Shown piece after piece: positions 8,188 to 26,718 of a DNA stretch of 64,000 nt (its first letter is position 1; each line of letters opens with the position of its first letter). The position numbers and the translations under genes were made by a program. The DNA comes from an uncultured Actinomycetota bacterium (GTDB lineage Bacteria > Actinomycetota > Actinomycetes > JAFAQI01): assembly GCA_963770565.1 (NCBI GenBank), contig CAVYQE010000002.1:656672-720671 (forward strand). The letters run 5' to 3'. The notes under the pieces are model-generated. The model searched no databases, was not told the DNA's origin, and saw nothing but the letters and a program-made list of their open reading frames with translations.

Positions 8188-8272
8188 CCAAGCAATGTCA
8201 CATTGCCCCGGGAAACCCGGGGGCAATGTGACACCACCCCCTCAAAGTGCAGGGCAATGTCACATTGCTTGG
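8188..8272. repeat. Family-1 composite palindromic element, copy A
   Basis: CCAAGCAATGTCACATTGCCCCGGGAAACCCGGGGGCAATGTGACACCACCCCCTCAAAGTGCAGGGCAATGTCACATTGCTTGG. Three GCAATGTSACATTGC-like cores; the outer two form a 22-bp terminal inverted repeat. Sits between the convergent 3' ends of ppc and the 8276..9505 gene. Same element at 28291 and 34916. Confidence 0.8.
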
Positions 8273-9612: not shown

Positions 9613-9635
9613 CCAAGCAATGTCACATTGCTTGG
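9613..9635. repeat. Solo 23-bp perfect palindrome of family 1 (CCAAGCAATGTCACATTGCTTGG)
   Basis: Equals the left and right terminal inverted repeats of the 85-bp family-1 element fused without the internal part. Lies 110 bp upstream of the start of gene 8276..9505 and 21 bp from the island attR-like repeat. Confidence 0.8.
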
Positions 9636-9653: not shown

Positions 9654-9712
9654 GCCGAGGCTCCGGGATTTGAACCCGGGATGGGCGCGAACCCAAACCG
9701 CATTAGCAGTGC
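9654..9712 (-). repeat. Duplicated 3' portion of tRNA-Ser(GCU) (attR-like partial tRNA)
   Basis: 9657..9712 is identical over 56 bp to 26632..26687 (59 bp with one mismatch if extended to 9654/26629). The copy covers the anticodon stem through the T-arm and acceptor 3' strand of the tRNA at 26630..26718, in the same orientation. Confidence 0.85.
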
Positions 9713-10528: not shown

Positions 10529-12736
10529 TTAGTGCGAGAACCGCACCGTCGGCAGCGCGCGGCGTAGCCACCGCGGGCTGTACCAGGCGTTGTGACCTGT
10601 CAGGCGAAGGATCACAGGCAGGATGATCAACCGGATCGACAACGCGTCAAGGAAGACTGCCACCGCCAGGATGACGCCCATCTCCTTGGGTGCGAGCGGG
10701 CCGGACAGCGCGAATGTGAGAAAGACCGCAACCATGACGCCGGCAGCCGCGACGACTACCCGCCCCGAGGTCCGCAACGCGGTGCGCATCGCGTCGTACG
10801 GGTCGCCGGTCGCGTCGTAGTGCTCACGCGCGGCGGACAGCAAGAACAGCGTGTAGTCCATCGCGACGCCCGAGAGCATCGCTCCGAAGAACAGCGGTGC
10901 CCAGGCGTCCACAAACCCCTGCGGCTGGAAGTGAAGCAGCCCGGACAGGTGGCCGTCCTGGAAGATCAGCCGGGCGACACCGAACGCGGCTGCGATCGAG
11001 GCGAGGTTGGTGATCACACCGGCAAACGCGACAAGCGGGCTACCGAGCGCGACGAGCAGTAGCAGGAACCCGAGCAAGATCAGCAGACCGAAAACCAACG
11101 GCGTGCGTGCGCTGAGGACCTTCTGCAGGTCGTGGTTCTCGGCAGCAGCACCGCCGATCAGCGTGCCGGCCGGGAGCTCGGTACGGATCCGGTCGATGGT
11201 CGCTCCGGTCGTCGCGCTGGAAGCGTCTGTGGTTGGGACCGCAAGAAGCATCTCGTACCCGTGACTGGTGCCGCCTGGCATCACAGCAGCGATGCCTCGA
11301 TCGGCGCGAAGCGCACTGGTTGCCTCGCCGACCGACGAGCTCGGCGCCACGATTTGCAGGGTGCCCGGTGCGCCAGGACCGAACGCGCTCACGACCTGTT
11401 CATAGCCGGCGCGTGCCGACTGGTCCGCGGGCACGATCGCGATACTCGGCATCCCGGTGCGCAGGCCCAGCACGGGCCAGGCGAGCATCGCGAGAAGTGC
11501 GACCACAAACGACGCGGCCAGCCAGGGACGGCGGTGCAGCAGACCGCCCCACCGATGGAGCAGATTCTCCAGGCCGCGCGGGAGATGCGGCTCGTGGAAG
11601 TGTCGCCGTTCGAACGCCTTGATCTGCCTTCGCGCCTCGCCGAACGGGAGTGCTCCATTGTTGATCCGCGGGCCGAGTCGGCCGAGCACGGCGGGCAGCA
11701 GCGTCAGCGTCGCGGCAAGTACGGCGACAACGGCGAGCATGATCCCGAGCGCCATACTGCGGAACGCCGGGCTGGGCACGATCAGCACGGTCGACAGCGA
11801 CACGAGGACGGTCAGGCCGCTGAACGCGACCGCCTTGCCAGCGGTTGCCATCGTCTCGCCGACGGCACCAATCGCGTCGTCGCCACCACGGCGGGCCATC
11901 GCGTGACGAAACCGTACGACGATGAACAAGGCGTAGTCGATGCCGAGCGCAAGTGCAAACATCATGGCGAAGTTCAAGGCCCAGATGCTGATCGGTGCCA
12001 CCCTGGTCGCCACTACGAGAGCTCCCGCGGCGCTCAACAGCCCGACGAGGGTCAACATCAGTGGCAGGCCTGCTGCAACGAGGCTGCCGAAGGCAAGCAC
12101 GAGGACGGCCAGCGTGACCGGCCAGGAAAGGATCTCTGAGCGAATCATCGCCGAGTGATTCACCTTGTTGAAGTCCGACCACAACGCGCTGTCACCGGTG
12201 AGCTCCACTGACACCGACGAACTCGACAGCTTCGACAGGGGACCGGTCAGCGCGTCTGCGGCGCGAACCATGTCATTGGCGCCGGCTGCGGCACCGGCTT
12301 GGATCACCCCGGTCCGGCCATCACGTGAGAGGCTTACACCCGCAGTCGGACCGACCACTGTGCTCACTCGAGGGTCGGCGCGCAAGAGTTTCTCGACGCG
12401 GCTCACTGCCGCTTGAGCGGCCGGGTCCGTCGCGATTGGCCGGGTCGAGTCATGAACGACAACCTGCAGTGCAGTGGCGCTCAAACCGGCGAAGTCGCGG
12501 GCGATCACCGCACGAGCCTGGACCGACTGGCTCCCGTTCGCCTGCCACCCGGCTCCCGCTAAGGACGAGTCCACCTTAGGCGCGAACGCGCCGAAGCCAA
12601 CAAGAACGACCAACCAGCCGAGGAGCACGATCCGGAAGTGAGTGGCAGCCCACACGCCCAGCCGGGCCAGCCACGCCGGGCTCGGTGTCGCTGCGGGGCT
12701 CGGCGGGGTCGTCGCGCGCGGGGCGACGGTTGTCAT
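10529..12736 (-). CDS. MMPL-family (RND superfamily) membrane transporter
   Basis: 735 aa. N-terminal TM followed by a large periplasmic loop, twice-repeated six-TM bundles, typical MmpL architecture. Last gene of the cstB-like/cstR-like operon; AAGGAG RBS at 12741-12746. Confidence 0.85.
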   Translation of the reverse strand: MTTVAPRATTPPSPAATPSPAWLARLGVWAATHFRIVLLGWLVVLVGFGAFAPKVDSSLAGAGWQANGSQSVQARAVIARDFAGLSATALQVVVHDSTRPIATDPAAQAAVSRVEKLLRADPRVSTVVGPTAGVSLSRDGRTGVIQAGAAAGANDMVRAADALTGPLSKLSSSSVSVELTGDSALWSDFNKVNHSAMIRSEILSWPVTLAVLVLAFGSLVAAGLPLMLTLVGLLSAAGALVVATRVAPISIWALNFAMMFALALGIDYALFIVVRFRHAMARRGGDDAIGAVGETMATAGKAVAFSGLTVLVSLSTVLIVPSPAFRSMALGIMLAVVAVLAATLTLLPAVLGRLGPRINNGALPFGEARRQIKAFERRHFHEPHLPRGLENLLHRWGGLLHRRPWLAASFVVALLAMLAWPVLGLRTGMPSIAIVPADQSARAGYEQVVSAFGPGAPGTLQIVAPSSSVGEATSALRADRGIAAVMPGGTSHGYEMLLAVPTTDASSATTGATIDRIRTELPAGTLIGGAAAENHDLQKVLSARTPLVFGLLILLGFLLLLVALGSPLVAFAGVITNLASIAAAFGVARLIFQDGHLSGLLHFQPQGFVDAWAPLFFGAMLSGVAMDYTLFLLSAAREHYDATGDPYDAMRTALRTSGRVVVAAAGVMVAVFLTFALSGPLAPKEMGVILAVAVFLDALSIRLIILPVILRLTGHNAWYSPRWLRRALPTVRFSH

Positions 12737-12803
12737 GGTTCTCCTTACATTGCCCGGTAGGGTATCTGTGATCCACTAACGATCAGCTGCGTATTGAGTC
12801 CGA

Positions 12804-13079
12804 TCAGGCCAAGCTGAGAAAGAGCTTCTCCATCTGGTCCGGGCTCAACGGCTCAACCTCACCCGCGGCGGCCGCCGACATGCACTGCCGCATCCCAGAG
12901 GCGAGCAACTTGTAGCCGGCGCGGTCGAACGCCTTGCTCACCGCGGCCATCTGGGTCACGATGTCGGCGCAGTCCCGGCCGTCCTCGAGCATCCGGATCA
13001 CACCGCCGACCTGTCCCTCGATTCGGCGCAGGCGCTTGACGATCTCGTCGGTCGCGCCGTTGTCGAGCTCCATGTGCAT
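12804..13079 (-). CDS. CsoR/CstR/RcnR-family (DUF156) repressor, CstR-like (two Cys, no metal-ligand His)
   Basis: MHMELDNGATDEIVKRLRRIEGQVGGVIRMLEDGRDCADIVTQMAAVSKAFDRAGYKLLASGMRQCMSAAAAGEVE...: conserved RxxGQxxGxxxM, a first Cys in ...DC.DIV.Q..A and a second Cys 29 residues later; no His four residues before the second Cys. GGAAGGA RBS. The upstream part of the track ORF 12804..13367 is not coding. Confidence 0.85.
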   Translation of the reverse strand: MHMELDNGATDEIVKRLRRIEGQVGGVIRMLEDGRDCADIVTQMAAVSKAFDRAGYKLLASGMRQCMSAAAAGEVEPLSPDQMEKLFLSLA

Positions 13080-13107: not shown

Positions 13108-14484
13108 TCACGTCGCGACCAACTGGCACCACGCCGTGTAGCCACCGAGCAGATCCGAGACGTCACGGGCACCGGCGCGCGCAAGGACGCTCGACGCCAC
13201 GATCGAGCGCCAACCAGTCGCGCAGTACACGAGGATAGGTTTGTCGAGGTCGAGTTCCGCGACCCGGCTCGGCAACTCGGCCAGCGGGATCGCGACGGCG
13301 CCGGAGAGCATGCCAGCGGCACGCTCGGTGGGGTTGCGCAGGTCGACAAGTTGAAGCTCGTCGACATTGTCGATGGCGTTCAGCGCCTCGGCGACGGTCA
13401 ACCGGCTCGAACGCGCAGTCTGTGCCGGGTCGGCACCCAGGAGACCGATCGGGTCGGCGACGTAGCCAATGACGTTGTCGTATCCGATCCGGGCGAGCCG
13501 CATCGCGTCACGTTGCTCCGCGCCGGTGGGACTGAGCAAGATCACCCTCGTTTCGGGTGGGAGCACGGACCCCACCGTCTCCGCGAGCCTGCCCTCGCCG
13601 CTCACGTTGACGGATCCGCTGAGATGCCCGGCGGCGTACTCCCCCGGCTCGCGGGTATCGAGCACGACGGCACCGGTCACCCGTTCTGCCTCGACGGTGG
13701 CCAGGTCCAGCGCCGGAACGGTCCGTGCGCCGTCTAGGCGTTCGTGATCCTGCCGGTTGAGCAGGGCGTTGAAGCCGAAATAGCCGGGTGCCGCCGGTTG
13801 GTCGGCGGTGACGATCGCGACGAACTGGTCCTCGGCCATCGGCCGGCATGCGTAGTTGAGAACTCGCTGCTCACCGATGGTCGACTGGCGCTCGGTCGAG
13901 AGGTTCTTGCCGCAGGCTGAGCCCGCACCGTGGGCAGGGAAAACGCGCACGGAATCGGGCAGACCCATGAGCTTGACCTGCACCGACTGGTACAGCCGGC
14001 GGGCGAGCTCGTCGGCGGTCACTCCCACCGAGGCCAGCAAGTCGGGTCTTCCGACATCGCCGATGAACAGCGCGTCGCCGGTGAGGACGCCCCACGGCAC
14101 CTCGTCAACAGCATGTTCGTAGACCAGCACGCTGATTGATTCCGGGGTGTGGCCTGGAGTCGCCATGATCTCGAGCGTCACGTCGCCGAGGTCGATCCGC
14201 TCACCATCGCGAAGGGCGCGGAACGCGAAGTCCGGCGCCGCCTCCTGACCGAAGCCGATCCAGGCACCCGTCGCAGCGGCGAGCTCCAAGTGCCCCGCGA
14301 CGAAGTCGGCGTGGAAATGGGTGTCGATCACCCCGACGATGGTCAGCCCCGCGCTGGCCGCCTCGGCGAGGTAGTCCTCGACGTCCCGACGCGGGTCGAC
14401 GACGACGGCGTGACGAGACGCCTCGTCAGCGATGAGGTACGACGCCTGCGACAGGCACTCGATGTAGTGCTGCGTAAAGATCAC
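13108..14484 (-). CDS. CstB-like persulfide dioxygenase (MBL fold) fused to two rhodanese domains
   Basis: The N-terminus VIFTQHYIECLSQASYLIADE... aligns with the CstB/ETHE1 start. Metal motif THFHADFVAGH. C-terminal rhodanese with active Cys (VYCATGWRS) preceded by an inactive rhodanese-like domain. GTG start at 14484 with GGAGG 5 nt upstream; the alternative is a leaderless ATG at 14505. Confidence 0.85.
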   Translation of the reverse strand: MIFTQHYIECLSQASYLIADEASRHAVVVDPRRDVEDYLAEAASAGLTIVGVIDTHFHADFVAGHLELAAATGAWIGFGQEAAPDFAFRALRDGERIDLGDVTLEIMATPGHTPESISVLVYEHAVDEVPWGVLTGDALFIGDVGRPDLLASVGVTADELARRLYQSVQVKLMGLPDSVRVFPAHGAGSACGKNLSTERQSTIGEQRVLNYACRPMAEDQFVAIVTADQPAAPGYFGFNALLNRQDHERLDGARTVPALDLATVEAERVTGAVVLDTREPGEYAAGHLSGSVNVSGEGRLAETVGSVLPPETRVILLSPTGAEQRDAMRLARIGYDNVIGYVADPIGLLGADPAQTARSSRLTVAEALNAIDNVDELQLVDLRNPTERAAGMLSGAVAIPLAELPSRVAELDLDKPILVYCATGWRSIVASSVLARAGARDVSDLLGGYTAWCQLVAT

Positions 14485-14503: not shown

Positions 14504-14520
14504 ATACCCCGTGAGGTATA
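14504..14520. promoter_or_regulatory. CsoR/CstR-type operator op1 (ATACCCCGTGAGGTATA), 20 bp upstream of the cstB-like start
   Basis: TACCC-N4-AGGTA palindrome (right half-site 4/5). Same family as op2-op6. Overlaps the alternative ATG at 14505. Confidence 0.7.
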
Positions 14521-14745
14521 TGTTGTCGACTCGAAGGAGCTTCTTGTGTGCATGCCCACTACGTGCCGTGATTGCGGCAAGACGACCTGGCGCGGCTGTG
14601 GCCAGCACGTCGACGCCGTCATGGCCGGTGTGCAAACGTCCCAACGCTGCACTTGCCCCCGGTCGACCCGCTCATCGCGGTCAGTGCTGACCCGACTGAT
14701 CGGTCGGACCTCCGCGTAGGCGATGGCGGGCCTCGACGGAGTGTG

Positions 14746-15912
14746 CTACTCGAGCTTGAGCAACGCCATCAGCCGTTCGGCAACCTGACCGCCCGCGTCG
14801 ATCGCGACGTCAACCGCATCGCTCACCCGCAGGTCGTCACGCAGCAACGAGCGGACCTCCGCCATTGTCGTGTCAGCGGCCGCGTTGGGGCGGCCGGCGG
14901 CGGACCGCAGCGCCTCGAGACGATCTGCGGCGCGCACCAGGCACGACCGGTCGTACTGCCAACTCTCAGACCACGGGCGGTCAAGCAACATGGTGCGAAT
15001 GACGCCAGCCGAGTGATCCGCGAGCAGGTCGCGCACTAGCACAAGGTTTCCCACGGACTTCGCCATCTTCACGCCGTCGACATTTACCACTCCGACGCGA
15101 AACCATCGGCGCGCGTAGGGTCGCACTCCGGTCAACGCCTCACCGATCGCCGCCTCGAATGCGTGATGGGGGTAGCGCAGGTCGGCACCGCCGGCGTGGA
15201 TGTCGACGCCCAGCCCGAACGTGCTGAGCACCATCGCAGTGCACCCGGCGTGCCAGCCTGGACGGCCCGGACCCCATGGGCTGTCCCATCGCTGGTCGGC
15301 CCCGGTCGAGGCCTGCCACAAAGCAGCGTCCAGCGGCTGCCGCTTCGCCGGGTCGGCCAGGTTGCCGCCGTACTCCGCGGCGAGCGCGAGCGCATCGGCC
15401 TCGGATAGACCTTCGGACTCGGCGATTCCCGTACCGGGCAGGTAGACGCTGCCCTCGCTGACGTAGGCGGCTCCACTCTCAACGAGGGCCGCCGCGAGCG
15501 CCACCACCTGGCTGATGTGGTGACGAGCGCGAGGCTCGTGATGCGGCCGGGAGACCCGCAGCGCTGCCATGTCAGCATCGAAGTGGTACTGCTGCAGGTA
15601 GGCGAAGGTGTCGTTCGGGGTGCCCGCACGGTCGGCCGCAGCGCTGAGCACGTCGTCGATGTCGGTGACGTTCCGGCAGACGATCGGGGTGGTGCGACTG
15701 TCGGCGAGCACGGCCGTGAGGACGTCGACCCAGACGTACGTCGCGGCGTGACCCAGATGCGTGACGTCGTAGGGGGTGATCCCGCAGACGTAGAGGCGCG
15801 CCCGGTCGATCATGGGCAGCGGCGATCCGGCGATCGACATCGGTTCTGGCGGGGCGGCGGTCGGGTAGACGATCTGCACGCCCCCATGATCCTCCGCGCC
15901 GCGGCGGCTCAT
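14746..15912 (-). CDS. MshC-like cysteine ligase (class I aminoacyl-tRNA-synthetase-like, CysRS paralogue lacking an anticodon-binding domain)
   Basis: HIGH-type motif CGITPYDVTHLGHAATYV and KMSKS-type motif KMAKSVGN. 388 aa. Strong local similarity to my recollection of mycobacterial MshC (FGPGRPGWH..., DMAALRV...). Start overlaps the Nudix stop (ATGA coupling). Confidence 0.75.
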   Translation of the reverse strand: MSRRGAEDHGGVQIVYPTAAPPEPMSIAGSPLPMIDRARLYVCGITPYDVTHLGHAATYVWVDVLTAVLADSRTTPIVCRNVTDIDDVLSAAADRAGTPNDTFAYLQQYHFDADMAALRVSRPHHEPRARHHISQVVALAAALVESGAAYVSEGSVYLPGTGIAESEGLSEADALALAAEYGGNLADPAKRQPLDAALWQASTGADQRWDSPWGPGRPGWHAGCTAMVLSTFGLGVDIHAGGADLRYPHHAFEAAIGEALTGVRPYARRWFRVGVVNVDGVKMAKSVGNLVLVRDLLADHSAGVIRTMLLDRPWSESWQYDRSCLVRAADRLEALRSAAGRPNAAADTTMAEVRSLLRDDLRVSDAVDVAIDAGGQVAERLMALLKLE

Positions 15913-16364
15913 CGACCGGTCGACGTACTTGGTACGGCAGTGAGGAGGAACTCGCGCTGCTCATCGTGCATCAGTGGCGGGAGCTCGCGGAACCAGCCGT
16001 AGGCCCGGGCCGCGTCATCCAGCTCGATCGTCCCGGTCCATTCGGTGACCTTGAAAGCGATGCCCACCGGGCTGTCCAGGTTGTTGTTGTAGTGGCTGGG
16101 GTACTCGATGTACCCGAGGAGCTCGGCGCGATCCACCGATATCCCGAGTTCCCCCCTCGCGACCCGGGCGACCGCGTCGGTCAGCGGCTCTCCGAATCGG
16201 ACCGTGCCGCCCGGCAGGTGCCACAAGCCTCGGCAGGGCTCGGCATCGCGTCTGGTGAGGAGAACCCCGCGCTCGGAGACCAGCACGACTTCCACAGTCA
16301 GCCGGGGAACCTTGCGGTAAATCGTCCAGAACTCCCGCTCGGACAGCGGGTGGTCCACGTCCAT
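15909..16364 (-). CDS. NUDIX hydrolase
   Basis: Nudix box GLWHLPGGTVRFGEPLTDAVARVARGELG. About 151 aa from the ATG at 16364; the longer track ORF would place the operator inside the coding sequence. First gene of a two-gene operon with the MshC-like ligase. Confidence 0.7.
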   Translation of the reverse strand: MDVDHPLSEREFWTIYRKVPRLTVEVVLVSERGVLLTRRDAEPCRGLWHLPGGTVRFGEPLTDAVARVARGELGISVDRAELLGYIEYPSHYNNNLDSPVGIAFKVTEWTGTIELDDAARAYGWFRELPPLMHDEQREFLLTAVPSTSTGR

Positions 16365-16415
16365 CTCATCAGTCAACGCTCGTTCGCCCCTCGCGTAATA
16401 GGGTCTTAGGTCTCT

Positions 16416-16431
16416 ATACCCACAGGGGTAT
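16416..16431. promoter_or_regulatory. CsoR/CstR-type operator op2 (ATACCCACAGGGGTAT) in the divergent nudix / sqr intergenic region
   Basis: Perfect TACCC-N4-GGGTA palindrome. 52 bp upstream of Nudix ATG 16364 and 74 bp upstream of SQR ATG 16505. Confidence 0.8.
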
Positions 16432-16504
16432 CCCTGGTAGACCGGGGGCATCGTGAGGAAAGCCTGCCCGTTGGACGGTTGGCTCGTCCGCCAAGGAGCA
16501 CCTG

Positions 16505-17965
16505 ATGGCTCGTGTCGTTGTCCTCGGCGCTGGGATCTCCGGCCACACCGCCGCACTCCACCTTCGCCGGCTCCTCGCTCGGCGCCACGAGGTCGTCGTC
16601 GTCTCACCGAATGCCGACTACAACTGGATCCCTTCAAACATCTGGGTCGGCGTCGGACGGATGGATGTTGACCAGGTCACCTTCCCGCTTGCGCCCGTGT
16701 ACCGGAGAAAAGGTATCGACTTTCGGCAAGCCCGGGCGGTCGAGCTCTGGCCAGAAGGCGACGACTCGAACGCCCAAGGTGCGGTCGAGATCGAGTACAC
16801 CCTTCCCCATCGGTCCGGCGAGCATGAACGACTCGCCTACGACTTCCTGATCAACGCGACCGGCCCCAAGCTGAACTTTGCGGCGACGCCGGGCCTCGGC
16901 CCGGAAGGAGGACACTCCCTGTCCGTTTGTACGGCACAGCATGCATCGGCCACCGCGGCCAAGTTCGCCGAGGTCATCGCGGCGCTTGAACGCGGCGAGA
17001 CCCGGCGCCTCGTGATCGGGGTAGGCCACGGCACGTGCACGTGCGAGGGCGCCGCTTTCGAGTACGCCTTCAACGTCGAGCACGAGCTACGGTCCCGCGG
17101 CCTCCGCGAGCGCGCCGAGGTGACCTACCTCACCAACGAGCACGAACTCGGTGACTTCGGCGTCGGCGGCATGACGTTCGCGCAGCACGGCTTTCTCACG
17201 ACCAGTCAACTGTGGACGGAGTCGCTGTTCATGGAGCGCGACGTCAAGGCGGTCGTCGGCGCACATGTGCAGCGGGTCGAGCCGGGCAAGTTGTTCTACG
17301 AAACCCTCGACGGCGAGGAGGGCGCGCTGGAGTTCGACTTCGCGATGCTGCTGCCGCCCTTCCGCGGCCAGGATCTCAAGGCGTACGACCACAGGGGCGC
17401 CGACATCACGAGCGAGATGTTTGCCCCGAACGGTTTCCTGAAAGTCGACGCTGACTACAGCCCAAAGCCGTACAACGAGTGGAAGGCGGCAGACTGGCCG
17501 AGGACGTACGTGACTCCGAAGTACCCGAACGTGTTCGGTGTGGGGATCGCATTTGCCCCACCGCACCCGATTTCGAAGCCACGAACCTCACCCGGCGGCA
17601 CCGTGATCTCGCCGGCTCCGCCCCGCACCGGAATGCCGTCAGGGCTGATGGGACGTCAGGTGGCACGCAGCATCGCGGACATGATCAACACCGGCGCGAC
17701 GACGCCCACCCACACTGCGTCGATGGCGGACATGGGTGCGGCCTGTGTGGCATCGGCCGGCGCTGGCTTTCGCAAGGGCACGGCGGCCTCCATGACGATG
17801 TACCCAGTCGTCCCGGACACCGACCGGTTCCCCGGCTACGGCCGCAGCCTCACCGATACGACCGGCGAGCTCGGACTAGCCGGGCACTGGATCAAGCACA
17901 TGCTGCACGTGATGTTCATCTACAAGGCCAAGGGCCGTCCAGGCTGGTCCCTGATCCCGGAGTGA
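16505..17965 (+). CDS. sqr: Sulfide:quinone oxidoreductase (FAD-dependent pyridine nucleotide-disulfide oxidoreductase family)
   Basis: N-terminal Rossmann VVVLGAGISGHTAA; conserved SQR Cys region GTCTCEGAAFEYA; 486 aa. AAGGAG RBS. Confidence 0.85.
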   Translation: MARVVVLGAGISGHTAALHLRRLLARRHEVVVVSPNADYNWIPSNIWVGVGRMDVDQVTFPLAPVYRRKGIDFRQARAVELWPEGDDSNAQGAVEIEYTLPHRSGEHERLAYDFLINATGPKLNFAATPGLGPEGGHSLSVCTAQHASATAAKFAEVIAALERGETRRLVIGVGHGTCTCEGAAFEYAFNVEHELRSRGLRERAEVTYLTNEHELGDFGVGGMTFAQHGFLTTSQLWTESLFMERDVKAVVGAHVQRVEPGKLFYETLDGEEGALEFDFAMLLPPFRGQDLKAYDHRGADITSEMFAPNGFLKVDADYSPKPYNEWKAADWPRTYVTPKYPNVFGVGIAFAPPHPISKPRTSPGGTVISPAPPRTGMPSGLMGRQVARSIADMINTGATTPTHTASMADMGAACVASAGAGFRKGTAASMTMYPVVPDTDRFPGYGRSLTDTTGELGLAGHWIKHMLHVMFIYKAKGRPGWSLIPE

Positions 17966-17973
17966 GGAGCCCG

Positions 17974-18192
17974 ATGACCGAGAACAATGCCGCGGCCTCG
18001 TCCGCGCAGCCCACAGCGGGCGGGTCCGCGACGGATCACGTGCGCGCGGTCGGCGAGGTCGCTGACTCCCTGGCGCCGATGCCGACCAGACGGACGATTC
18101 GGATCCGAACGTTCCTGCCCTATCAGGCGTACCGCTTCGGTGTCATCAACCTCAAGATGCTCAAGGTGACCCGTCGCTCCCAGTCAAGGTGA
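17974..18192 (+). CDS. Small hypothetical protein translationally coupled to sqr
   Basis: 72 aa. GAGGAG lies 5 nt upstream of the ATG at 17974, 8 nt after the sqr stop. No recognisable domain. Confidence 0.4.
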   Translation: MTENNAAASSAQPTAGGSATDHVRAVGEVADSLAPMPTRRTIRIRTFLPYQAYRFGVINLKMLKVTRRSQSR

Positions 18193-18270
18193 GCCTGGCG
18201 ACCCCGGGTCTCGACCTAATGTTCGGACATTTCCTTGACCCGAGCGAGTAAATGTCCGTACATTGAGTGA

Positions 18271-19104
18271 ATGAGGCAGGAGTCACACCCACCGGGCCTG
18301 GCCCGAATCGACCGAACCGGGTCGGTGTCGCTGTGGGCGCAGGTCCGCGCTGATCTGGAGCGACGGCTCGCGGTCGATGAGTTCGACGGTGACTTCCCCG
18401 GCGAACTGGAGCTGACCGCGCAATACGCGGTCAGCCGGCACACCATTCGGGAGGCGTTGCGTCACCTGCGCGCGGAAGGCCTCGTCATCAGTGAGCGCGG
18501 ACGCCGCTCTCGCCTCGCCGACCACGCTGAAATCGAGCAACCGCTCGGCGCGCTCTACAGCCTGTTCGCCTCGGTCGAGGCCGCCGGTCTGGAGCAGCGC
18601 AGCGTCGTCCGCGCCCTTGATCTCCGCGCCGACGGAGTCATCGCGCCGCGACTCGACGTCGAGGAGTCCACCCCACTGCTCTATCTGGAACGGCTCCGTC
18701 TGGCCGGCGAGAAGCCGTTCGCGATGGACCGCGTCTGGCTCCCCGCGTCAGTCGCCGAACCGCTGCTCGACGCGGACTTCACCCACACTGCCCTGTACGA
18801 CGAACTCGCCGCGCGCTGCGGATTCCGCCTGACCGGCGGCCGGGAACACATCCGCGCGGTCCTTCCGACCACGGCCGAACGCAGACTGCTCGAACTCGAC
18901 GACACCACCGCACTGTTCGCGATCGAACGCCTTGGTGAACGGGCCGGCCAGCCAATGGAGTGGCGCCACACCCTGGTCCGTGGCGACCGATTCGCCCTCA
19001 CTGCCGACTTCACCGCCCACACCGGCTACCGGCTCGAGCTGTCCGGCCCCGAACGACAGGCTTCCAACCTCGCGACCGCATCGCAAGGACACGCCCATGG
19101 CTGA
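18271..19104 (+). CDS. GntR-family regulator with UTRA effector domain (HutC/FarR subfamily)
   Basis: N-terminal GntR HTH (...ELELTAQYAVSRHTIREALRHLRAEGLVISERGRRSRLA), C-terminal UTRA-like domain. 277 aa. Embedded in the sqr-rhodanese-tauE gene string. Confidence 0.8.
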   Translation: MRQESHPPGLARIDRTGSVSLWAQVRADLERRLAVDEFDGDFPGELELTAQYAVSRHTIREALRHLRAEGLVISERGRRSRLADHAEIEQPLGALYSLFASVEAAGLEQRSVVRALDLRADGVIAPRLDVEESTPLLYLERLRLAGEKPFAMDRVWLPASVAEPLLDADFTHTALYDELAARCGFRLTGGREHIRAVLPTTAERRLLELDDTTALFAIERLGERAGQPMEWRHTLVRGDRFALTADFTAHTGYRLELSGPERQASNLATASQGHAHG

Positions 19105-19450
19105 CCCCTTCGATCCGCAGACTCGGGTCGACGAAGTCAGCCCGGCCGCAGCGCGGGACCTCGCCGATGCCGGTGCCGTGCTCGTCGATGTCCGTGAGCC
19201 GGACGAATGGGCCGCGGGCCACATCGCCGACGCACAGCACATCCCGCTCGGCGACCTCGACCCTGACCTGTTCGTCGGCGGCCCGCTCGTAGTCGCTGTG
19301 TGCCGCTCGGGGCACCGCTCCGGCACCGCGGCGCTGCGATTGCACGACGCGGGAGTCGACGTCCGCAACATGACGGGCGGAATGAAGGCCTGGCAGGCCG
19401 ACGGCCTGCCCGTCACCCGCGACGACGGCACCACCGGCTCAGTCGCGTGA
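19097..19450 (+). CDS. Single-domain rhodanese sulfurtransferase
   Basis: 117 aa with active-site loop CRSGHRS. Overlaps the gntR stop by 8 nt and the tauE start by 4 nt. Confidence 0.8.
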   Translation: MADPFDPQTRVDEVSPAAARDLADAGAVLVDVREPDEWAAGHIADAQHIPLGDLDPDLFVGGPLVVAVCRSGHRSGTAALRLHDAGVDVRNMTGGMKAWQADGLPVTRDDGTTGSVA

Positions 19451-20370
19451 CGCTCGCCTTGGCACTTCTCCTCGGTGCCGTCATCGGGCTCAGCCTGGGG
19501 GCCCTTGGTGGTGGCGGTTCGATCCTCACCGTCCCGGCGCTCGTGTATGCGCTCGGCGAGAAGGCGTCGGCAGCCACGACCGGCAGCCTGATCATTGTCG
19601 GGATCACCGCGCTCGTTGGTTCCTTCGGCCACGCACGAGCGGGCCGGGTGCGCTGGCGCGCCGGGTTCGGTTTCGGTCTCGCCGGGGTCGCCTCGAGCTC
19701 CCTCGGGACAGCGCTCAACCGTCATATCAACCCGGATGTGCTGCTGCTCGCCTTCGCCGGCCTGGTGGTGATCGCAGCGTCAGGTATGTGGCGTCATGCC
19801 GGGGCTGCCATCGCGGTATCTGGTGATCAGCTCGAGCTTCGCGTCGCCGAGCCTGCTTTGGCGGTGGACGGCTCAAACGCTTCGAGGAGCGCAGCGGTCG
19901 AACTACCCGGCGACCGAGGCATCCGTCCCACACCGGCCAGCCAGCCGGAGGGATCGATCGACTTCCCCGGTGGCTCAACCACCCACGATTCCCTGAGAAC
20001 CGTCCTCAAGGTGGTCGCCGCCGGTCTTATCGTCGGCTTTCTCACCGGGTTCTTCGGTGTTGGCGGCGGCTTCGTCATCGTGCCCGCCCTGGCCCTCGTA
20101 CTCGCCTACCCGATGCCTGAGGCGATCGGAACGTCCCTGCTGATCATCGCCATCAACTCAGCAGCCGCCCTCGGCGAACGAGCCGGCCAACATCAGACAG
20201 TTCATTGGCACGTGATCGCGCCGTTTACGGTCGCGGCTGTTGCCGCCAGCCTCGCCGGCAAGCAGGTCGCCGACCGAGTCGACGGACCAAGGCTGACGCG
20301 CGCCTTCGTCATTCTTCTGATCGCGGTCGCGATCTACACCGCGGTCCGCAGCATCGTCGGCCTCAGCTGA
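19447..20370 (+). CDS. TauE/SafE (DUF81) sulfite/sulfur-compound exporter family membrane protein
   Basis: Duplicated 4-TM halves, each with a glycine-rich motif: LGALGGGGSILTVPAL and FFGVGGGFVIVPAL. GTG start overlapping the rhodanese stop. Confidence 0.8.
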   Translation: MTLALALLLGAVIGLSLGALGGGGSILTVPALVYALGEKASAATTGSLIIVGITALVGSFGHARAGRVRWRAGFGFGLAGVASSSLGTALNRHINPDVLLLAFAGLVVIAASGMWRHAGAAIAVSGDQLELRVAEPALAVDGSNASRSAAVELPGDRGIRPTPASQPEGSIDFPGGSTTHDSLRTVLKVVAAGLIVGFLTGFFGVGGGFVIVPALALVLAYPMPEAIGTSLLIIAINSAAALGERAGQHQTVHWHVIAPFTVAAVAASLAGKQVADRVDGPRLTRAFVILLIAVAIYTAVRSIVGLS

Positions 20371-20495
20371 GCAGACGGGAGACACCTGCTGTCACACGAC
20401 ACGACGGGCAAGGGTGGAGACTTCAACTGGGCACTAGCGGGGACTTCCAACTGGCCATAGTTGGGAATAGACGCCGGGCGAGTGCCGTTGAATCC

Positions 20496-20513
20496 TATAC
20501 CCCTAGGGGTATA
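20496..20513. promoter_or_regulatory. CsoR/CstR-type operator op3 (TATACCCCTAGGGGTATA)
   Basis: Perfect 18-bp palindrome of the form TACCC-N4-GGGTA. 17 bp upstream of the GGAGGAG RBS and ATG 20530 of the DUF2892-like gene. Confidence 0.85.
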
Positions 20514-20529
20514 CTGGAGGAGAAACGCC

Positions 20530-20739
20530 ATGGAACTCGTACGCTTTATGCAGACTTCGATAGGAAGAAGCCTTCGGGCCGTGCTCGGGGTGGTCCTGAT
20601 CGCCGTCGGTGTCGTCCTTGGTGGTGCCTGGCTAGCGCTGGCTGGTATCGGTCTCGTTCCCCTTATCGTCGGATCGGCGGGTCTTTGCCTCATCGCCCCT
20701 CTACTCCACGCTCCGATCCGTGGAGCTCAGAGATCATGA
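20530..20739 (+). CDS. Small two-TM membrane protein, DUF2892/YgaP-C-terminal-like
   Basis: 69 aa: MELVRFMQTSIGRSLRAVLGVVLIAVGVVLGGAWLALAGIGLVPLIVGSAGLCLIAPLL; two hydrophobic helices and a Cys near the second. Strong RBS. This family commonly partners rhodaneses. Confidence 0.45.
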   Translation: MELVRFMQTSIGRSLRAVLGVVLIAVGVVLGGAWLALAGIGLVPLIVGSAGLCLIAPLLHAPIRGAQRS

Positions 20740-20794
20740 GTGAGGCGCGCTCCGATTTCGGCAACTCACACATGACAGTTGACGGGACACGAGC

Positions 20795-21400
20795 GTGACC
20801 ACGCTGGACCGGCAAGGGTGGGATGAGCGGTACCGGGACACCGAGCTGGTGTGGGGCTCTGGCCCCAACCGATTTCTCGTGGACCATGTGACGAACCTGA
20901 CGCCAGGGACTGCGCTGGACGTGGCGTGCGGTGAGGGTCGCAACGCCATCTGGCTTGCGCATCAGGGATGGCGGGTGGTCGGGGTCGACTTCTCGTCCGT
21001 TGGTCTTGACAAGGCGCGAGGGCTGGCAGCGGAGACTGGTGTCACGGCGGAGTGGGTGCAGGGTGACCTCACCACATGGGAGCCACCGAAAAGCTATGAC
21101 CTCGTCGTTGTCATGTACCTGCATTTGCCAGGCGCTGTGCGTCACAGTGTCTTTGCGCGGATGGCAAAGTCGGTGGCACCGGGCGGGACCATGCTCGTGG
21201 TAGGTCATGACATGTTGAACCTCACCGAGGGAACCGGCGGTCCACAGAATGCTGCCGTTCTCTACGGGCCTGAGGACGTTGTCGGCGATATCGGCTCGGT
21301 ACTTGCGATCGAGAGAGCGGAGCGTGTTCACCGGCCGGTCTCCGGTTCGGAGGGCGAGGCGATGGCCATCGACGTCCTGGTTCGCGCTCACCGATCCTGA
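20795..21400 (+). CDS. Class I SAM-dependent methyltransferase (TehB/thiopurine-methyltransferase-like)
   Basis: Motif I LDVACGEGRNAIWLA, motif post-I VVGVDFS. 201 aa. Downstream of op3 in the same orientation. Confidence 0.8.
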   Translation: MTTLDRQGWDERYRDTELVWGSGPNRFLVDHVTNLTPGTALDVACGEGRNAIWLAHQGWRVVGVDFSSVGLDKARGLAAETGVTAEWVQGDLTTWEPPKSYDLVVVMYLHLPGAVRHSVFARMAKSVAPGGTMLVVGHDMLNLTEGTGGPQNAAVLYGPEDVVGDIGSVLAIERAERVHRPVSGSEGEAMAIDVLVRAHRS

Positions 21401-21413
21401 ACCTTTACAGGCC

Positions 21414-22127
21414 TTAGGCGGTGGCAGATGGCGCACGGAGCCACCGCAACCATTCGGTGTCGCCCATTAGGTCCAGCCGGCGCCAGAGCACGGGGTTATC
21501 CGTAGCCTGGCTTGCGTGGAGGGCGATGGCGCGATGCTGAATAGAACGGTCGACATGAAGCACGATGTCGACCTCGTCCTCGCTGCAGCCGGCAAAGCAG
21601 GTGCCGAAGGCGGCGTTGAGGGAATCGGCCACCGAGTCCGGGATCGACCAAGCAATCACAGGCAGATCAAGTAACTCGGCCGCACGCAAGGCTGCTTCTG
21701 TCGCCCGTTGATGGTCGCGGTGTCCCGTGATCCCACCGAGATCGAAGACAAGTAGCCCATGAGCACCAACCGCGTTGACATATCCAACGACATCGTCGAC
21801 CAGGATGTCGAGTTCGATGGAGTCGAGACTTCCATCAGCGTGGTCCAGCAGCCGCACATCGCTGACCGTGAGTGCATCGGCGGCGGCGGCAAGCTCGGCG
21901 ACCCGGACGACACGAAGGTCACCTGACGTCCCGTGCAGGGCTGACGCCTCGCCGTGAGTGAAACTGAGCACGGCGGTCGATGTGCCGGCGGCCGTCAAAC
22001 TAGCGATGACAGCGCCCAAGCCGAAGGACTCGTCGTCGGGGTGGGCGCACACAGCAACTACGGACGGCAGCCCCACAGCATCCAGCGTCATATCGCAATC
22101 TGACGCGCTGGGACGCCGCGCGGTCAT
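21414..22127 (-). CDS. LmbE/PIG-L-family N-acetylglucosaminyl deacetylase (MshB/Mca-like)
   Basis: Signature AHPDDE (VCAHPDDESF) and HxDH (GHRDHQ). 237 aa. Start overlaps the thioredoxin stop (ATGA), so co-transcribed with trx. Confidence 0.8.
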   Translation of the reverse strand: MTARRPSASDCDMTLDAVGLPSVVAVCAHPDDESFGLGAVIASLTAAGTSTAVLSFTHGEASALHGTSGDLRVVRVAELAAAADALTVSDVRLLDHADGSLDSIELDILVDDVVGYVNAVGAHGLLVFDLGGITGHRDHQRATEAALRAAELLDLPVIAWSIPDSVADSLNAAFGTCFAGCSEDEVDIVLHVDRSIQHRAIALHASQATDNPVLWRRLDLMGDTEWLRWLRAPSATA

Positions 22128-22492
22128 GACACGACGTTGGACTTGGCGACGAGGCGGTGGATCTCGTCCATGTCGAGGTCACGCACCTTCCCAATGAGCT
22201 CGTCCAGTGCAGCAGCCGGCAGTGCTCCGGGCTCCCTGTAGACGATCACCTCGTCGCGCAAGATCATGAGGGTCGGGATCGACATGATGCCGAACCCAGA
22301 GGCCATCTCTTGCTCGCCCTCAATGTCCACTTTGGCGAACAAGAGATCCGAGTGAGTTTCAGAGGCCTTCTCGAACACGGGGGCGAATGCCCTGCAGGGT
22401 CCGCACCACGACGCCCAGAAGTCCACCAGCACGATCTCATTGCTGGTCACCACCGTGTCGAAATCCCCTTTGGTAACAGTCACCGTGGCCAC
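22124..22492 (-). CDS. trxA: Thioredoxin
   Basis: WCGPC active site (WASWCGPCRAF). 122 aa. GTG start with GGGAAGGG RBS. op4 lies 18 bp upstream. Confidence 0.9.
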   Translation of the reverse strand: MATVTVTKGDFDTVVTSNEIVLVDFWASWCGPCRAFAPVFEKASETHSDLLFAKVDIEGEQEMASGFGIMSIPTLMILRDEVIVYREPGALPAAALDELIGKVRDLDMDEIHRLVAKSNVVS

Positions 22493-22509
22493 TGGCGCCC
22501 TTCCCTGGG

Positions 22510-22525
22510 TACCCCCTGGGGTATA
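22510..22525. promoter_or_regulatory. CsoR/CstR-type operator op4 (TACCCCCTGGGGTATA) upstream of trx-lmbE
   Basis: TACCC-N4-GGGTA palindrome 18 bp upstream of the trx GTG. Confidence 0.8.
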
Positions 22526-22575
22526 GTCTACAAGGACGGCCCGCCTGGTGTCATTCCCCCTCGCACCACAATGAG

Positions 22576-22588
22576 ATACCCGGGGTAT
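22576..22588. promoter_or_regulatory. Weak/atypical operator-like palindrome op5 (ATACCCGGGGTAT)
   Basis: Half-sites present but the spacer is 1 instead of 4. Lies 51 bp from op4 in the same intergenic region. Could be an auxiliary site or coincidence. Confidence 0.25.
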
Positions 22589-22648
22589 GACCGGGGTGGG
22601 GTCGCGTTGGACCGGTCGCTCGGTGGCGCTGATGGCGTCGTCTTGCTG

Positions 22649-23278
22649 CTATTGCGACGGACTAGCCGGATTCGCGGCCACGCCGAGGGTGAACCAGCTC
22701 CACGGTTTCGGTCCGTTGGCGTAGCGCCGCTCGATCCGCTCGATCACAAAGCCGGCATCGCCGACGAGAGCCGGAGCATCACGTGTGAGGTGGCAACCAT
22801 CTCCCAGTCGGCGCTGCCACGGGTCGAGACGGTATTGCCACCGGGCCACCGAGGCGTCGGGAGAGAGTCCGTGTTCGAGGAAATGGAAGCGGCCTCCCGG
22901 CCGGAGCACCCGGCGGAGTTCGGACAGAACCTTGGTGGGGTCGGCGACGGTGCAGAGCGTGAACGTAGAGAGCGCTGCGTCGCAGCTGGCGTCGTCAAGG
23001 GGGATCGCCTGGCCGTCGAGACCGATGTGCTCGACGGGTGTCCTGCCGGCCATGACCCGCTTCGTAGCCAATCTTCGTGCGAGCGCGGCCGGTTCGACTG
23101 CTAACACCTTCTCCACTTCTGGTGGATAGTGCTCGACGTTGAGACCGGAACCGAATCCGATCTCGACGACCCGGCCAGCGAGTCCCTCCGTCACCTCGGC
23201 GCGCCAGCCTCGCAGAGCGCCCGTGCTACATGCCCGGTCTACCAGGCGGGGAAGGACCTGCTCGCGGTAGAAGCTCAC
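22649..23278 (-). CDS. Class I SAM-dependent methyltransferase (UbiE/Methyltransf_11-like)
   Basis: Motif I VVEIGFGSGLN, motif II/III region PGGRFHFLEH. The first ~240 codons of the track ORF 22649..23998 are Arg/His/Pro-rich wrong-frame sequence. No ATG; GTG start assumed at 23278. Confidence 0.65.
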   Translation of the reverse strand: MSFYREQVLPRLVDRACSTGALRGWRAEVTEGLAGRVVEIGFGSGLNVEHYPPEVEKVLAVEPAALARRLATKRVMAGRTPVEHIGLDGQAIPLDDASCDAALSTFTLCTVADPTKVLSELRRVLRPGGRFHFLEHGLSPDASVARWQYRLDPWQRRLGDGCHLTRDAPALVGDAGFVIERIERRYANGPKPWSWFTLGVAANPASPSQ

Positions 23279-23397
23279 GGTCGCGACGCTACCGGTGCCG
23301 CCGGAGGACAACACCGCTGTGAGTGTCCGTGATCGAGGCGGGCGTCGTTTGGAGACTCCCTTGCGGTTGGCGTAGCGCGGATCTGCGCAACAAACCG

Positions 23398-24084
23398 TCA
23401 AGCGACGCGGATTGCCGCCTCGATCTCGACTCGGGCCAGCTCCTTGGTGCAGAAGAACCAGTCCTCGCACTCGATGCCGTCGATCCCGTCGTCCATGCGC
23501 TCCTTGGCGGTGCCGCATGATCCGGCGGTGGGGACGATGACCCGCTCGCCGGGCTGCCAGTCGGCGGGGGTGGCGACTGAGAAATGGTCGGCGGTCTGCA
23601 GCGCCTTGACCACCCGCAACAGTTCGGGGAAATTGCGCCCGATGCTGAGCGGGTAGTAGATGATCGTCCGGATCACGCCCTCGGGGTCGATGACAAACAC
23701 CGCGCGTACCGCCTTGGTGGAGTCCTCGCCGGGCATGATCATCCCGTACTTGCGGGCCACCTCCATCGTGATGTCCTCGATGAGGGGGAAGGTGACCTCG
23801 ACGTTCTTCATGTCGCGGTAGGTGATCTTGTCCTTGATGGTGCGCAGCCAGGCGATGTGGCTGTAGAGGCCGTCGACCGACAAGCCCACGAGGTCGGTGT
23901 TGTAGGCCGCGAACTGCTCTTGCATCGACGCGAAGGTCATGAACTCGCTGGTACAGACCGGCGTGAAGTCGGCTGGGTGCGAGAACAAGATGACCCACTT
24001 GCCGACGTAGTCGGACGGGAAGTTGATCTCCCCTTGTGTCGTCACGGCGGTAAAGGATGGCGCCGGGTCGCCGATGCGCGGCAT
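23398..24084 (-). CDS. 1-Cys peroxiredoxin (Prx6-like, AhpC/TSA family)
   Basis: Peroxidatic Cys motif FTPVCTSEF; MPRIGDPAPSF N-terminus; 228 aa from ATG 24084. The track extension to 24186 has low GC3. Confidence 0.85.
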   Translation of the reverse strand: MPRIGDPAPSFTAVTTQGEINFPSDYVGKWVILFSHPADFTPVCTSEFMTFASMQEQFAAYNTDLVGLSVDGLYSHIAWLRTIKDKITYRDMKNVEVTFPLIEDITMEVARKYGMIMPGEDSTKAVRAVFVIDPEGVIRTIIYYPLSIGRNFPELLRVVKALQTADHFSVATPADWQPGERVIVPTAGSCGTAKERMDDGIDGIECEDWFFCTKELARVEIEAAIRVA

Positions 24085-24185
24085 CGTCGGGACAAGGGCA
24101 GGCGTCTCAATACTGGTCACGGTGCGGCTTCCTCTGTTCAAATCGTCGGTGGCCCCGCAAAAGGGGGATCTACTATGACCAACCA

Positions 24186-24202
24186 ATACCCATGGGGGTA
24201 TA
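24186..24202. promoter_or_regulatory. CsoR/CstR-type operator op6 (ATACCCATGGGGGTATA) upstream of the peroxiredoxin
   Basis: TACCC-N4-GGGTA palindrome about 100 bp upstream of prx ATG 24084. Confidence 0.7.
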
Positions 24203-26235: not shown

Positions 26236-26629
26236 GCGAGTCGCGTCGGAATGTCGCGGCCGTCAGCGTAGGTGGCCGGCACGGGCAGCTCGACGGTCAC
26301 GTTGGCGACGCTCTATGACTACGAGGCGCGGCCGGTCGGACGCACCATTGCGCCGGTGGGTCATCTCATTGCCCGGCCGAGGTTGAGCAGAACCGGCAAA
26401 TTGTCGGTCGACGTCTGCTGCCGGGCGCCTCGCCATGCGGTCGCTGCCGTCGCTTGCCCGGTCTAATAGCGTATAGAGGCGGGGCCGATTCATCGAGTGC
26501 CCGGATCGCTCACGAAACCTCGGATGCCGGTTCCGGATCGGTCCGGGCCGATCAGGTGAAGATGATCTGGCCGCCGGCGGCCTGCAAGCGAGTTACATCA
26601 GTGTGTTCAGCGAAAGCGCAGGTCAGCAG

Positions 26630-26718
26630 CGGAGGCTCCGGGATTTGAACCCGGGATGGGCGCGAACCCAAACCGCATTAGCAGTGCGGCGCCATAGACC
26701 GGACTAGGCGAAGCCTCC
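26630..26718 (-). tRNA. tRNA-Ser (anticodon GCU), type II with long variable arm
   Basis: Reverse complement GGAGGCTTCGCCTAGTCCGGTCTATGGCGCCGCACTGCTAATGCGGTTTGGGTTCGCGCCCATCCCGGGTTCAAATCCCGGAGCCTCCG. Anticodon loop CTGCTAA, long variable arm, T-arm CCGGGTTCAAATCCCGG. Its 3' 56 nt are duplicated at 9657..9712. Confidence 0.9.

Follow-up and report, generated by a model that had tools for sequence, protein, structure and literature searches.

A genomic island of about 17 kb, within a 64-kb window of DNA from an uncultured Actinomycetota bacterium (64,000 nucleotides; contig CAVYQE010000002.1, positions 656,672 to 720,671), carries five strong palindromes of the form TACCC-N4-GGGTA, designated op1 to op4 and op6, each upstream of genes for sulfur or thiol metabolism. 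With a probability of roughly 80%, these palindromes are operators of the island's own repressor, a CsoR-family protein of the CstR (persulfide-sensing) type that would be released from DNA by sulfane sulfur. Directly observed are the motif and its statistics, its placement relative to promoters, its conservation across the phylum and the pattern of sensor residues in the repressor. All positions given below are those of the window, and the features of the island are collected in Table 1.

Probable operator sites, their conservation and promoter geometry

The motif scan of the source genome covers the 64-kb window, in which TACCC-N4-GGGTA occurs exactly four times (at 16417, 20498, 22510 and 24187) against 0.01 expected by chance; in dinucleotide-preserving shuffles, from which the chance expectation was taken, at least four exact matches were reached in 0 of 100. 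With one mismatch allowed, op1 at 14505 (TACCCCGTGAGGTA) and a site at 12751 (TGCCCGGTAGGGTA) join them, making six matches against 0.51 expected. The 16-bp form ATACC-N6-GGTAT is exact at op1, op2, op3 and op6 and has one mismatch at op4, and at one mismatch or fewer it is found only at these five operators (0.24 expected). A weight matrix derived from 137 homologous sites in other genomes (consensus aTACCCC-nn-GGGGTAt) gives the five sites 20–30 bits and the site at 12751 6.8 bits, and no other position exceeds −1.5 bits. Pattern and matrix scans both reproduce the coordinates and sequences of the five strong sites listed in a preliminary description of this DNA, and they bear out its statement that no such motif lies elsewhere in the 64 kb.

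A scan of a genome collection with the sulfide:quinone oxidoreductase (SQR) protein of the island yielded 80 loci at 63–83% SQR identity, the best relative being 83% identical. They amount to 1.31 Mb and come from Nocardioides, Dermatophilaceae, Nanopelagicales, Pengzhenrongella, Cellulomonas and Acidimicrobiia. In these sequences TACCC and GGGTA are separated by N4 137 times and by any other spacing from N0 to N12 only 0–3 times, and six control palindromes occur 0–4 times. At a threshold of 12 bits the matrix finds 159 sites in the related loci and 0 in shuffled sequence. Among the operator clusters of other genomes, 117 of 127 precede an island-gene homologue by 300 bp or less. Association was counted as co-directional gene runs headed by an operator, and such runs include 62 of 82 copies of SQR, 41 of 58 copies of the conserved 72-residue protein s72, 39 of 48 of CstR and 36 of 48 of the small Cys-rich protein sCys. 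The same holds for the MMPL-family transporter (19/21), the TPMT/TehB-like methyltransferase MT1 (20/20), thioredoxin (Trx, 15/17), the PIG-L/LmbE-type deacetylase (9/12) and the sulfite exporter TauE (8/9), and less uniformly for the YgaP-like transmembrane (TM) protein (8/13), the CstB-like persulfide dioxygenase-rhodanese fusion PDO-Rhd (6/12) and the separate rhodanese (18/39). Tandem sets of two or three operators are frequent at related promoters, with spacings of about 32–33 bp at the MMPL genes of Acidimicrobiia and of 20–48 bp elsewhere (loci L042, L051, L054, L055, L063, L064 and others at MMPL; also L001, L019, L020, L066 and L073), an arrangement that suggests cooperative or multi-tetramer binding.

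Two further, weak sites had been proposed, of which one stands. The site at 12751 has a counterpart on a related contig (L082) that encodes a CstR 87% identical to that of the island, together with PDO-Rhd, MMPL, GntR, rhodanese, TauE and further genes ending with PAP2. There, a 15-bit site (ATACCCTACCGTGTAT) lies between cstR and MMPL, in the same place, and because of this better site 12751 is read as a decaying homologue of a real operator, not as a chance match. The second, a TACCC-N1-GGGTA palindrome at 22577–22587 (TACCCGGGGTA), 54 bp from op4, was rejected as a weak operator: its spacing is wrong, and N1 is found once in the 1.31 Mb of related loci as against 137 times for N4. This palindrome may have arisen from an operator by deletion, or by chance.

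The distance from operator core to start codon is 17–74 bp, within the 17–100 bp given in the preliminary description. Op1 lies 20 bp from the gene for PDO-Rhd and 27 bp from that for sCys, op2 52 bp from the NUDIX hydrolase gene and 74 bp from the SQR gene, op3 18 bp from the gene for the YgaP-like protein, op4 17 bp from the Trx gene and op6 57 bp from the gene for a 1-Cys peroxiredoxin (Prx). Both op1 and op2 thus stand between divergent genes; such a pair had been described for op2, and op1 serves one likewise. In 48 related loci the equivalent operator is found 28–79 bp upstream of the SQR homologue, with a mode of 40 bp. The combination of operator and SQR gene is also seen in the cultivable genera Pengzhenrongella and Nocardioides (L015, L021).

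Between 12.5 and 24.6 kb, five sigma-70-like sites were predicted (1.3 expected), and four of them overlap operators. Op1 is situated in the spacer of TCGACA-17-TATGGT (− strand, 14529–14501), op3 inside TTGAAT-16-TATACT (+ strand, 20488–20515) and op4 directly downstream of the −10 element of ATGACA-18-TAGACT (− strand, 22554–22525), while the only promoter-like site overlapping op6, ATGACC-18-TATATT (+ strand, 24175–24204), is directed rightwards. The remaining site is the promoter of the GntR gene itself. No predicted terminator-like site in this region coincides with an operator. The geometry recurs in relatives: on contig L082 the equivalent of op1 reads TTGACA, then ATACCCCACCAGGTAT, then TATGGT, in the order TCGACA, op1, TATGGT of the window, and in the SQR promoters of Acidimicrobiia, cTTGA[TACCCC..GGGGTA]T-N4-TAnnnT, the operator fills the spacer between −35 and −10.

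The promoter-like site at op6 points into a stretch of about 790 bp (24202–24990) that extends to the likely start of a PAP2 gene (GTG 24992). A search for a conserved gene in 24200–25000, by tblastx against all loci, returned noise only; possible contents of the stretch are a decayed gene, a long leader and an RNA.

A CstR-type repressor and its probable signal

The window contains a single CsoR-family open reading frame (ORF), cstR, and it lies in the operon controlled by op1, whose promoter carries ATACC-N6-GGTAT, in agreement with the preliminary description. PF02583 matches residues 11–73 of the 91-residue product with 85.1 bits (cutoff 22.8). A ribosome-binding site, GAGGAAGG, is positioned 8 nt before ATG 13073, and an 89-residue database protein is 100% identical to the repressor, so that ATG 13073 is suggested as the true start. 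Cys37 and Cys66 align with both copper-ligand Cys residues of solved CsoR structures, and Gly62 occupies the position of the ligand His. The same pattern is found in 49 homologues encoded beside related clusters, in which the two Cys are invariant (49/49 and 48/48) and the His position is G in 32, S in 13, N in 2 and H in 1. A pattern of x-C-x-C is the fingerprint of persulfide sensors according to Fakhoury et al. 2021 (PMC8643695). Further context comes from the neighbouring genes, since cstR shares its operon with PDO-Rhd and is accompanied in the window by SQR, rhodanese and TauE, as it is in the 80 related loci. The sites behave as operators of this CsoR-family repressor, in line with the preliminary description. 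The assignment of the protein to the CstR type and not the copper type is supported by these sequence features, and every sequence-level characteristic of CstR that could be examined is present in the island system. The agreement of the numbering Cys37/Cys66 with that of ScCsoR was set aside as evidence; the 89-residue start gives Cys35/Cys64. Homologues of the repressor number 1179 at E ≤ 1e-10 and are named only as 'metal-sensitive' or 'FrmR family' regulators.

By analogy with ScCsoR of Streptomyces coelicolor (PMC7533328) and the cluster-10 CstRs (PMC8643695), we infer that the island repressor binds the five sites and that sulfane sulfur is its inducer. With both Cys reduced, the repressor would occupy the operators and, because these overlap or abut the −35 and −10 elements, would block RNA polymerase. 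Oxidation of sulfide by SQR would generate sulfane sulfur (persulfides and polysulfides), Cys37 would become persulfidated and/or cross-linked to Cys66' of the adjacent protomer, and the repressor would leave the DNA. All units would then be de-repressed jointly: PDO-Rhd/cstR/MMPL; sCys; SQR/s72, possibly with read-through into the genes for GntR, rhodanese and TauE; YgaP-like/MT1; Trx/PIG-L; and, in this genome, also NUDIX/MshC-like ligase and Prx (possibly with the second methyltransferase, MT2). Since cstR is part of the op1-controlled operon, the repressor would be autoregulated, which would provide feedback. The predicted net outcome is oxidation of H2S to sulfite or thiosulfate, coupled with export and a reinforced thiol redox capacity.

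Several points weigh against this interpretation or narrow it. The sole promoter-like site at op6 faces away from Prx, and a simple promoter scan found no consensus promoter at op2. In relatives, operator-headed runs rarely or never include NUDIX (0/10), the MshC-like ligase (0/3), GntR (0/8), Prx (1/5) or MT2 (3/8); the operator link of NUDIX/MshC-like and of Prx is not conserved, and therefore control by op2 in the leftward direction and control of Prx by op6 draw their evidence from the window only. The related loci were gathered via SQR, which biases both the families that are visible and their counts, and the motif scan covered only 64 kb of the source genome. A copper-type CsoR paralogue encoded elsewhere in that genome could also bind these sites.

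Of the alternatives, the one that fares best retains the repressor and its operators and changes the signal to a wider range of thiol-oxidative or electrophile stresses (H2O2, disulfide stress, nitroxyl, selenite or tellurite) in place of sulfane sulfur specifically. The presence of thioredoxin, a 1-Cys peroxiredoxin and TehB/TPMT-like methyltransferases in the regulon would fit such a signal, tetrathionate, an electrophile that induces disulfides, reacts with cluster-10 CstRs as well (PMC8643695), and nitroxyl is reported to intersect sulfide homeostasis through reactive sulfur species in Staphylococcus aureus (PMC5480029). We nevertheless consider it unlikely: the conserved operator-linked core consists of SQR, PDO-Rhd, rhodanese and TauE, that is, the pathway from sulfide to sulfite, whereas only one of five related Prx copies is under an operator, and ScCsoR responds to polysulfide (PMC7533328).

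It is considerably less probable that the sites are operators of a copper-sensing repressor of the CsoR/RicR type, whose gene would be the one found here or lie in another part of the genome, and that the island is a copper-stress regulon. The DNA motif alone cannot separate copper from persulfide sensors, because RicR shares the same palindrome: the Mycobacterium tuberculosis ricR promoter carries TACCCCGCTGGGTA (PMC3944814), with a core identical to TACCC-N4-GGGTA, as the preliminary description had stated. The repressor itself is most similar in sequence to Cu-CsoRs among PDB entries (the matches to CsoR, InrS and FrmR chains together span 6e-12 to 2e-4), its best, sub-threshold NCBIfam match is the RicR model, and a homologous module on the Rhodococcus plasmid pBD2 adjoins metal-resistance genes. 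The protein, however, lacks the copper-ligand His, which is present in 1 of 49 homologues, and it falls short of the NCBIfam cutoffs for RicR (NF052430; 55.8 bits against 175), FrmR (34.2 against 133) and RcnR (23.1 against 138). The 64 kb contain neither a DKTGT motif of P-type ATPases nor a CopZ-like ORF, and every product placed under the operators is related to sulfur or thiols. Least credible of all is a non-regulatory origin of the palindromes, as GC-rich inverted repeats arisen by chance, as terminator stems or as repeats connected with island mobility. Their capacity to form short hairpins and their confinement to the island might suggest it, but it is contradicted by the chance expectation of 0.01, the strict N4 spacing across 80 genomes, the fixed placement relative to −35/−10 elements and start codons, and a location upstream and not downstream of genes with no coincident terminator.

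Extent of the predicted regulon and comparison with known systems

Release of a CstR-type repressor by sulfane sulfur would here affect an unusually large predicted regulon, with 5 operators and up to 7 transcription units. The closest counterpart is ScCsoR (SCO0620) of S. coelicolor, a two-Cys protein that binds ATACC-N6-GGTAT, dissociates in response to polysulfide and regulates its own gene, with two ScCsoR sites in the Scpdo promoter (PMC7533328). The two systems have in common the two Cys with no copper-ligand His, an operator of the same sequence and spacing that overlaps the promoter, autoregulation and control of PDO, rhodanese and TauE (both predicted here), and two sites per promoter, which in our case are seen in relatives. 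S. coelicolor differs in that its regulon comprises 4 genes at 3 promoters and includes no SQR. The island adds SQR, MMPL, Trx, PIG-L, methyltransferases and sCys, in this genome also NUDIX/MshC-like ligase and Prx, and its location at tRNA-Ser. The description of the regulon as expanded thus stands with respect to the number of transcription units, with the qualification that relatives do not share the predicted control of NUDIX/MshC-like and Prx/MT2.

Firmicutes offer single operons for comparison. The S. aureus cst operon, cstR-cstA-cstB-sqr with a divergent tauE, occupies a single locus. The island resembles it in its x-C-x-C sensor and in the pathway formed by SQR, a CstB-type PDO-Rhd, TauE and a sulfurtransferase. 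It has no multidomain CstA, and its thiol-redox, MMPL and methyltransferase additions are not known from the S. aureus system (compare PMC8643695). In the published sequence similarity network (SSN), S. aureus CstR belongs to cluster 4 (Firmicutes), and cluster 3 holds actinomycete x-C-x-C CsoRs, candidate persulfide sensors that include ScCsoR and Rv1766 (PMC8643695). The cluster-10 CstRs of Streptococcus mitis, Streptococcus pneumoniae and Enterococcus faecalis are tetrameric persulfide sensors of the same family with a similar, GC-rich inverted-repeat operator (ATATACCCTTATGGGGTATAT in S. mitis; PMC8643695). Unlike the island sites, their operator core is N5 relative to TACCC/GGGTA, and they regulate rhdA, coaP and rhdB only; a cluster-10 chain (7mq1) matches the island repressor with E 4.9e-10 only.

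The multi-promoter layout is shared with M. tuberculosis RicR, which has the same palindrome in several separate promoters including its own (PMC3944814). RicR differs in sensing Cu(I) through x-C-H-C and in controlling lpqS, mymT, socAB, mmcO and Rv2963, where the island targets are sulfur and thiol genes. A related, annotated module is found on plasmid pBD2 of Rhodococcus erythropolis (NC_005073.1, 118207–130656; locus L083), where genes for MMPL, a YgaP-like TM protein, DUF302, TauE, a 'metal-sensitive transcriptional regulator' and a metallo-beta-lactamase (MBL)-fold hydrolase occur together. Its MMPL gene is preceded by a pair of strong operators (about 23 bits each) with a spacing of 20 bp, and its regulator gene by a weaker one. 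In contrast to the island, this module is plasmid-borne and smaller, and the stretch examined contains no gene for SQR, Trx or PIG-L. The pBD2 module adjoins cadmium-resistance and P-type ATPase genes. A megablast search of the whole island against plasmids gave partial matches only, at 71–75% identity, in the MMPL and MBL genes.

A wider proposal, which we advance tentatively, is that the island represents one sample of a modular CstR regulon that spreads horizontally and extends across the phylum Actinomycetota (Actinomycetes and Acidimicrobiia), in which each cassette brings its own operator. To the known SQR/PDO/TauE set, the conserved core would add Trx/PIG-L, s72, sCys, an exporter of the MMPL family and a methyltransferase of the TPMT/TehB-like kind, whose substrates may be sulfide or thiols. 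If this is true, bacteria would handle reactive sulfur with the help of three new components, sCys, s72 and MMPL.

The sensor type, the operator and the mechanistic logic have already been published, and no principle is changed; operators beside such genes are what a specialist would expect. The CstR regulons known so far all differ in gene content, and the island differs from them in scale and content: where it has up to seven predicted transcription units, S. coelicolor has three promoters and Firmicutes have single operons. ScCsoR is the only characterised actinobacterial CstR, and the cluster to which it belongs, about 3,000 proteins with M. tuberculosis Rv1766 among them, is described as largely uncharacterised (PMC8643695). 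No description of a wider actinobacterial CstR regulon was found in the literature searched, nor did the search find a functional study of Rv1766. The locus and its 80 relatives provide a testable regulon model for cluster 3, with a sharp operator consensus and a defined promoter geometry, that ranks conserved against lineage-specific targets. They single out an MMPL transporter and small proteins that lack annotation as candidates for a part in the detoxification of sulfide and persulfide, and they indicate that CstR-type systems move on islands and plasmids.

The island, its genes and its small conserved proteins

The island is bounded by a 59-nt direct repeat, 98% identical between its two copies (9654–9712 and 26629–26687), which correspond to the 3' part of tRNA-Ser(gct). 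The segment so enclosed contains every operator, as had been claimed. In several relatives (L008, L051, L066 and L080) a tRNA-Ser gene is found about 0.2–4 kb downstream of the SQR gene. Pfam and PHROG searches of the ORFs at both island ends detected no integrase or recombinase. The GC content is 63–67% over 16–26 kb and 66–75% elsewhere, a small and overlapping difference. The segment looks like an old island that has lost its mobility.

Table 1. Features of the island and its boundaries, with window coordinates
Feature	Coordinates	Strand	Remarks
Left island boundary	9654..9712		59-nt copy of tRNA-Ser 3' part (repeat family D1)
MMPL-family transporter	10529..12736	-	Pfam MMPL 3.8e-63; last gene of op1 operon
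Weak decayed operator	12750..12765		- strand reads ATACCCTACCGGGCAA; 6.8 bits; between cstR and MMPL
cstR, CsoR-family (PF02583) repressor	12804..13079	-	91-aa ORF; likely start ATG 13073, giving 89 aa
PDO-Rhd (CstB-like persulfide dioxygenase-rhodanese fusion)	13108..14484	-	Pfam Lactamase_B and 2 Rhodanese stretches
op1	14504..14519		ATACCCCGTGAGGTAT; 20 bits; between divergent PDO-Rhd/cstR/MMPL (-) and sCys (+)
sCys, small Cys-rich protein	14546..14719	+	57 aa from GTG 14546
MshC/CysRS-like ligase	14746..15912	-	Pfam; 4-nt overlap with NUDIX
NUDIX hydrolase	15909..16364	-	Pfam; 4-nt overlap with MshC/CysRS-like ligase
op2	16416..16431		ATACCCACAGGGGTAT; 25 bits; between NUDIX/MshC-like (-) and SQR/s72 (+)
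Sulfide:quinone oxidoreductase (SQR)	16505..17965	+	PDB SQR matches 3hyv 1e-37, 3sx6 4.7e-37
s72, 72-aa conserved ORF	17974..18192	+	directly after SQR
GntR/UTRA regulator, rhodanese, TauE sulfite exporter	18271..20370	+	Pfam; genes overlap
op3	20497..20512		ATACCCCTAGGGGTAT; 30 bits; upstream of YgaP-like TM gene and MT1 (+)
YgaP-like TM protein (DUF2892)	20530..20739	+	Pfam
MT1, TPMT/TehB-like SAM methyltransferase	20795..21400	+	Pfam
PIG-L/LmbE-type deacetylase	21414..22127	-	Pfam; 4-nt overlap with thioredoxin
Thioredoxin (Trx)	22124..22492	-	Pfam; 4-nt overlap with PIG-L
op4	22509..22524		GTACCCCCTGGGGTAT; 24 bits; upstream of thioredoxin/PIG-L (-)
MT2, second methyltransferase	~22649-23281	-	Pfam
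1-Cys peroxiredoxin (Prx)	23398..24129	-	Pfam; NCBIfam PRK13189 329 bits against cutoff 211
op6	24186..24201		ATACCCATGGGGGTAT; 27 bits; 57 bp upstream of 1-Cys peroxiredoxin (-)
tRNA-Ser(gct)	26629..26718	-	its 3' 59 nt (26629-26687) form the right-hand repeat

PDO-Rhd matches PDB entries 3tp9 (5.6e-85) and 3r2u (6e-58) as well as BpPRF, a PDO-rhodanese fusion (8e-28). The PDB listing for 3r2u says only that it is a metallo-beta-lactamase family protein; we take it to be S. aureus CstB. The PIG-L protein scores below the NCBIfam cutoffs for BshB, MshB and Mca.

The MshC/CysRS-like ligase is below the NCBIfam cutoffs for both MshC (271 bits against 485) and CysS (252 against 340), and on the basis of these two scores is classified by sequence as a paralogue of both MshC and CysRS, at equal distance from the two. 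Candidate roles are the supply of a low-molecular-weight thiol and a persulfide chemistry like that of CysRS. Four Acidimicrobiia loci (L042, L055, L060 and L080) have a run of GntR, MshC-like and NUDIX genes divergent from PDO-Rhd, with no CstR operator.

sCys has the motif MC-x4-C-x2-C-x7-C-G-x-H-x13-C-x-C, in which six Cys and one His are invariant. The related loci contain 48 copies, about half of them directly headed by an operator, and comparison with homologues places the real start at GTG 14546 and not at ATG 14552. No family was found for it in Pfam (E ≤ 10), NCBIfam or PHROGs, and its database homologues are all named 'hypothetical protein'. An AlphaFold2 model comprises a β-hairpin and a helix, with a predicted local distance difference test (pLDDT) score of 72 overall and about 80 over residues 1–40. 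Foldseek returned no PDB match to the model with E ≤ 0.001; several small zinc fingers are among the best 26 matches, each of which has E above 3. The second small protein, s72, follows SQR in 58 related loci and has the C-terminal motif APxPT..T.R.R....Q..RF...N.KM..M..K.H. It matched no family, and may be a partner peptide of SQR.

The genes for GntR, rhodanese and TauE have their own promoter-like site (TTGACC-18-TACATT, 18235–18264) and may also receive read-through from op2. Two AATGT-N4-ACATT palindromes, at 18218–18231 (AATGTTCGGACATT) and 18251–18264 (AATGTCCGTACATT), flank or overlap this site, and the second is retained on contig L082. The palindromes probably serve GntR itself as operators and would form a second regulatory layer over rhodanese and TauE.

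Outside the island, on its left flank, a 409-residue ORF (8276–9505, − strand) combines a hydrophobic, signal-like stretch at the N terminus with W/G-rich repeats, and matched no Pfam or PHROG family, integrases included. It is flanked by a 19-nt element containing the palindrome GCAATGT-C-ACATTGC, present three times, at 8188–8206, 8250–8268 and 9613–9631.

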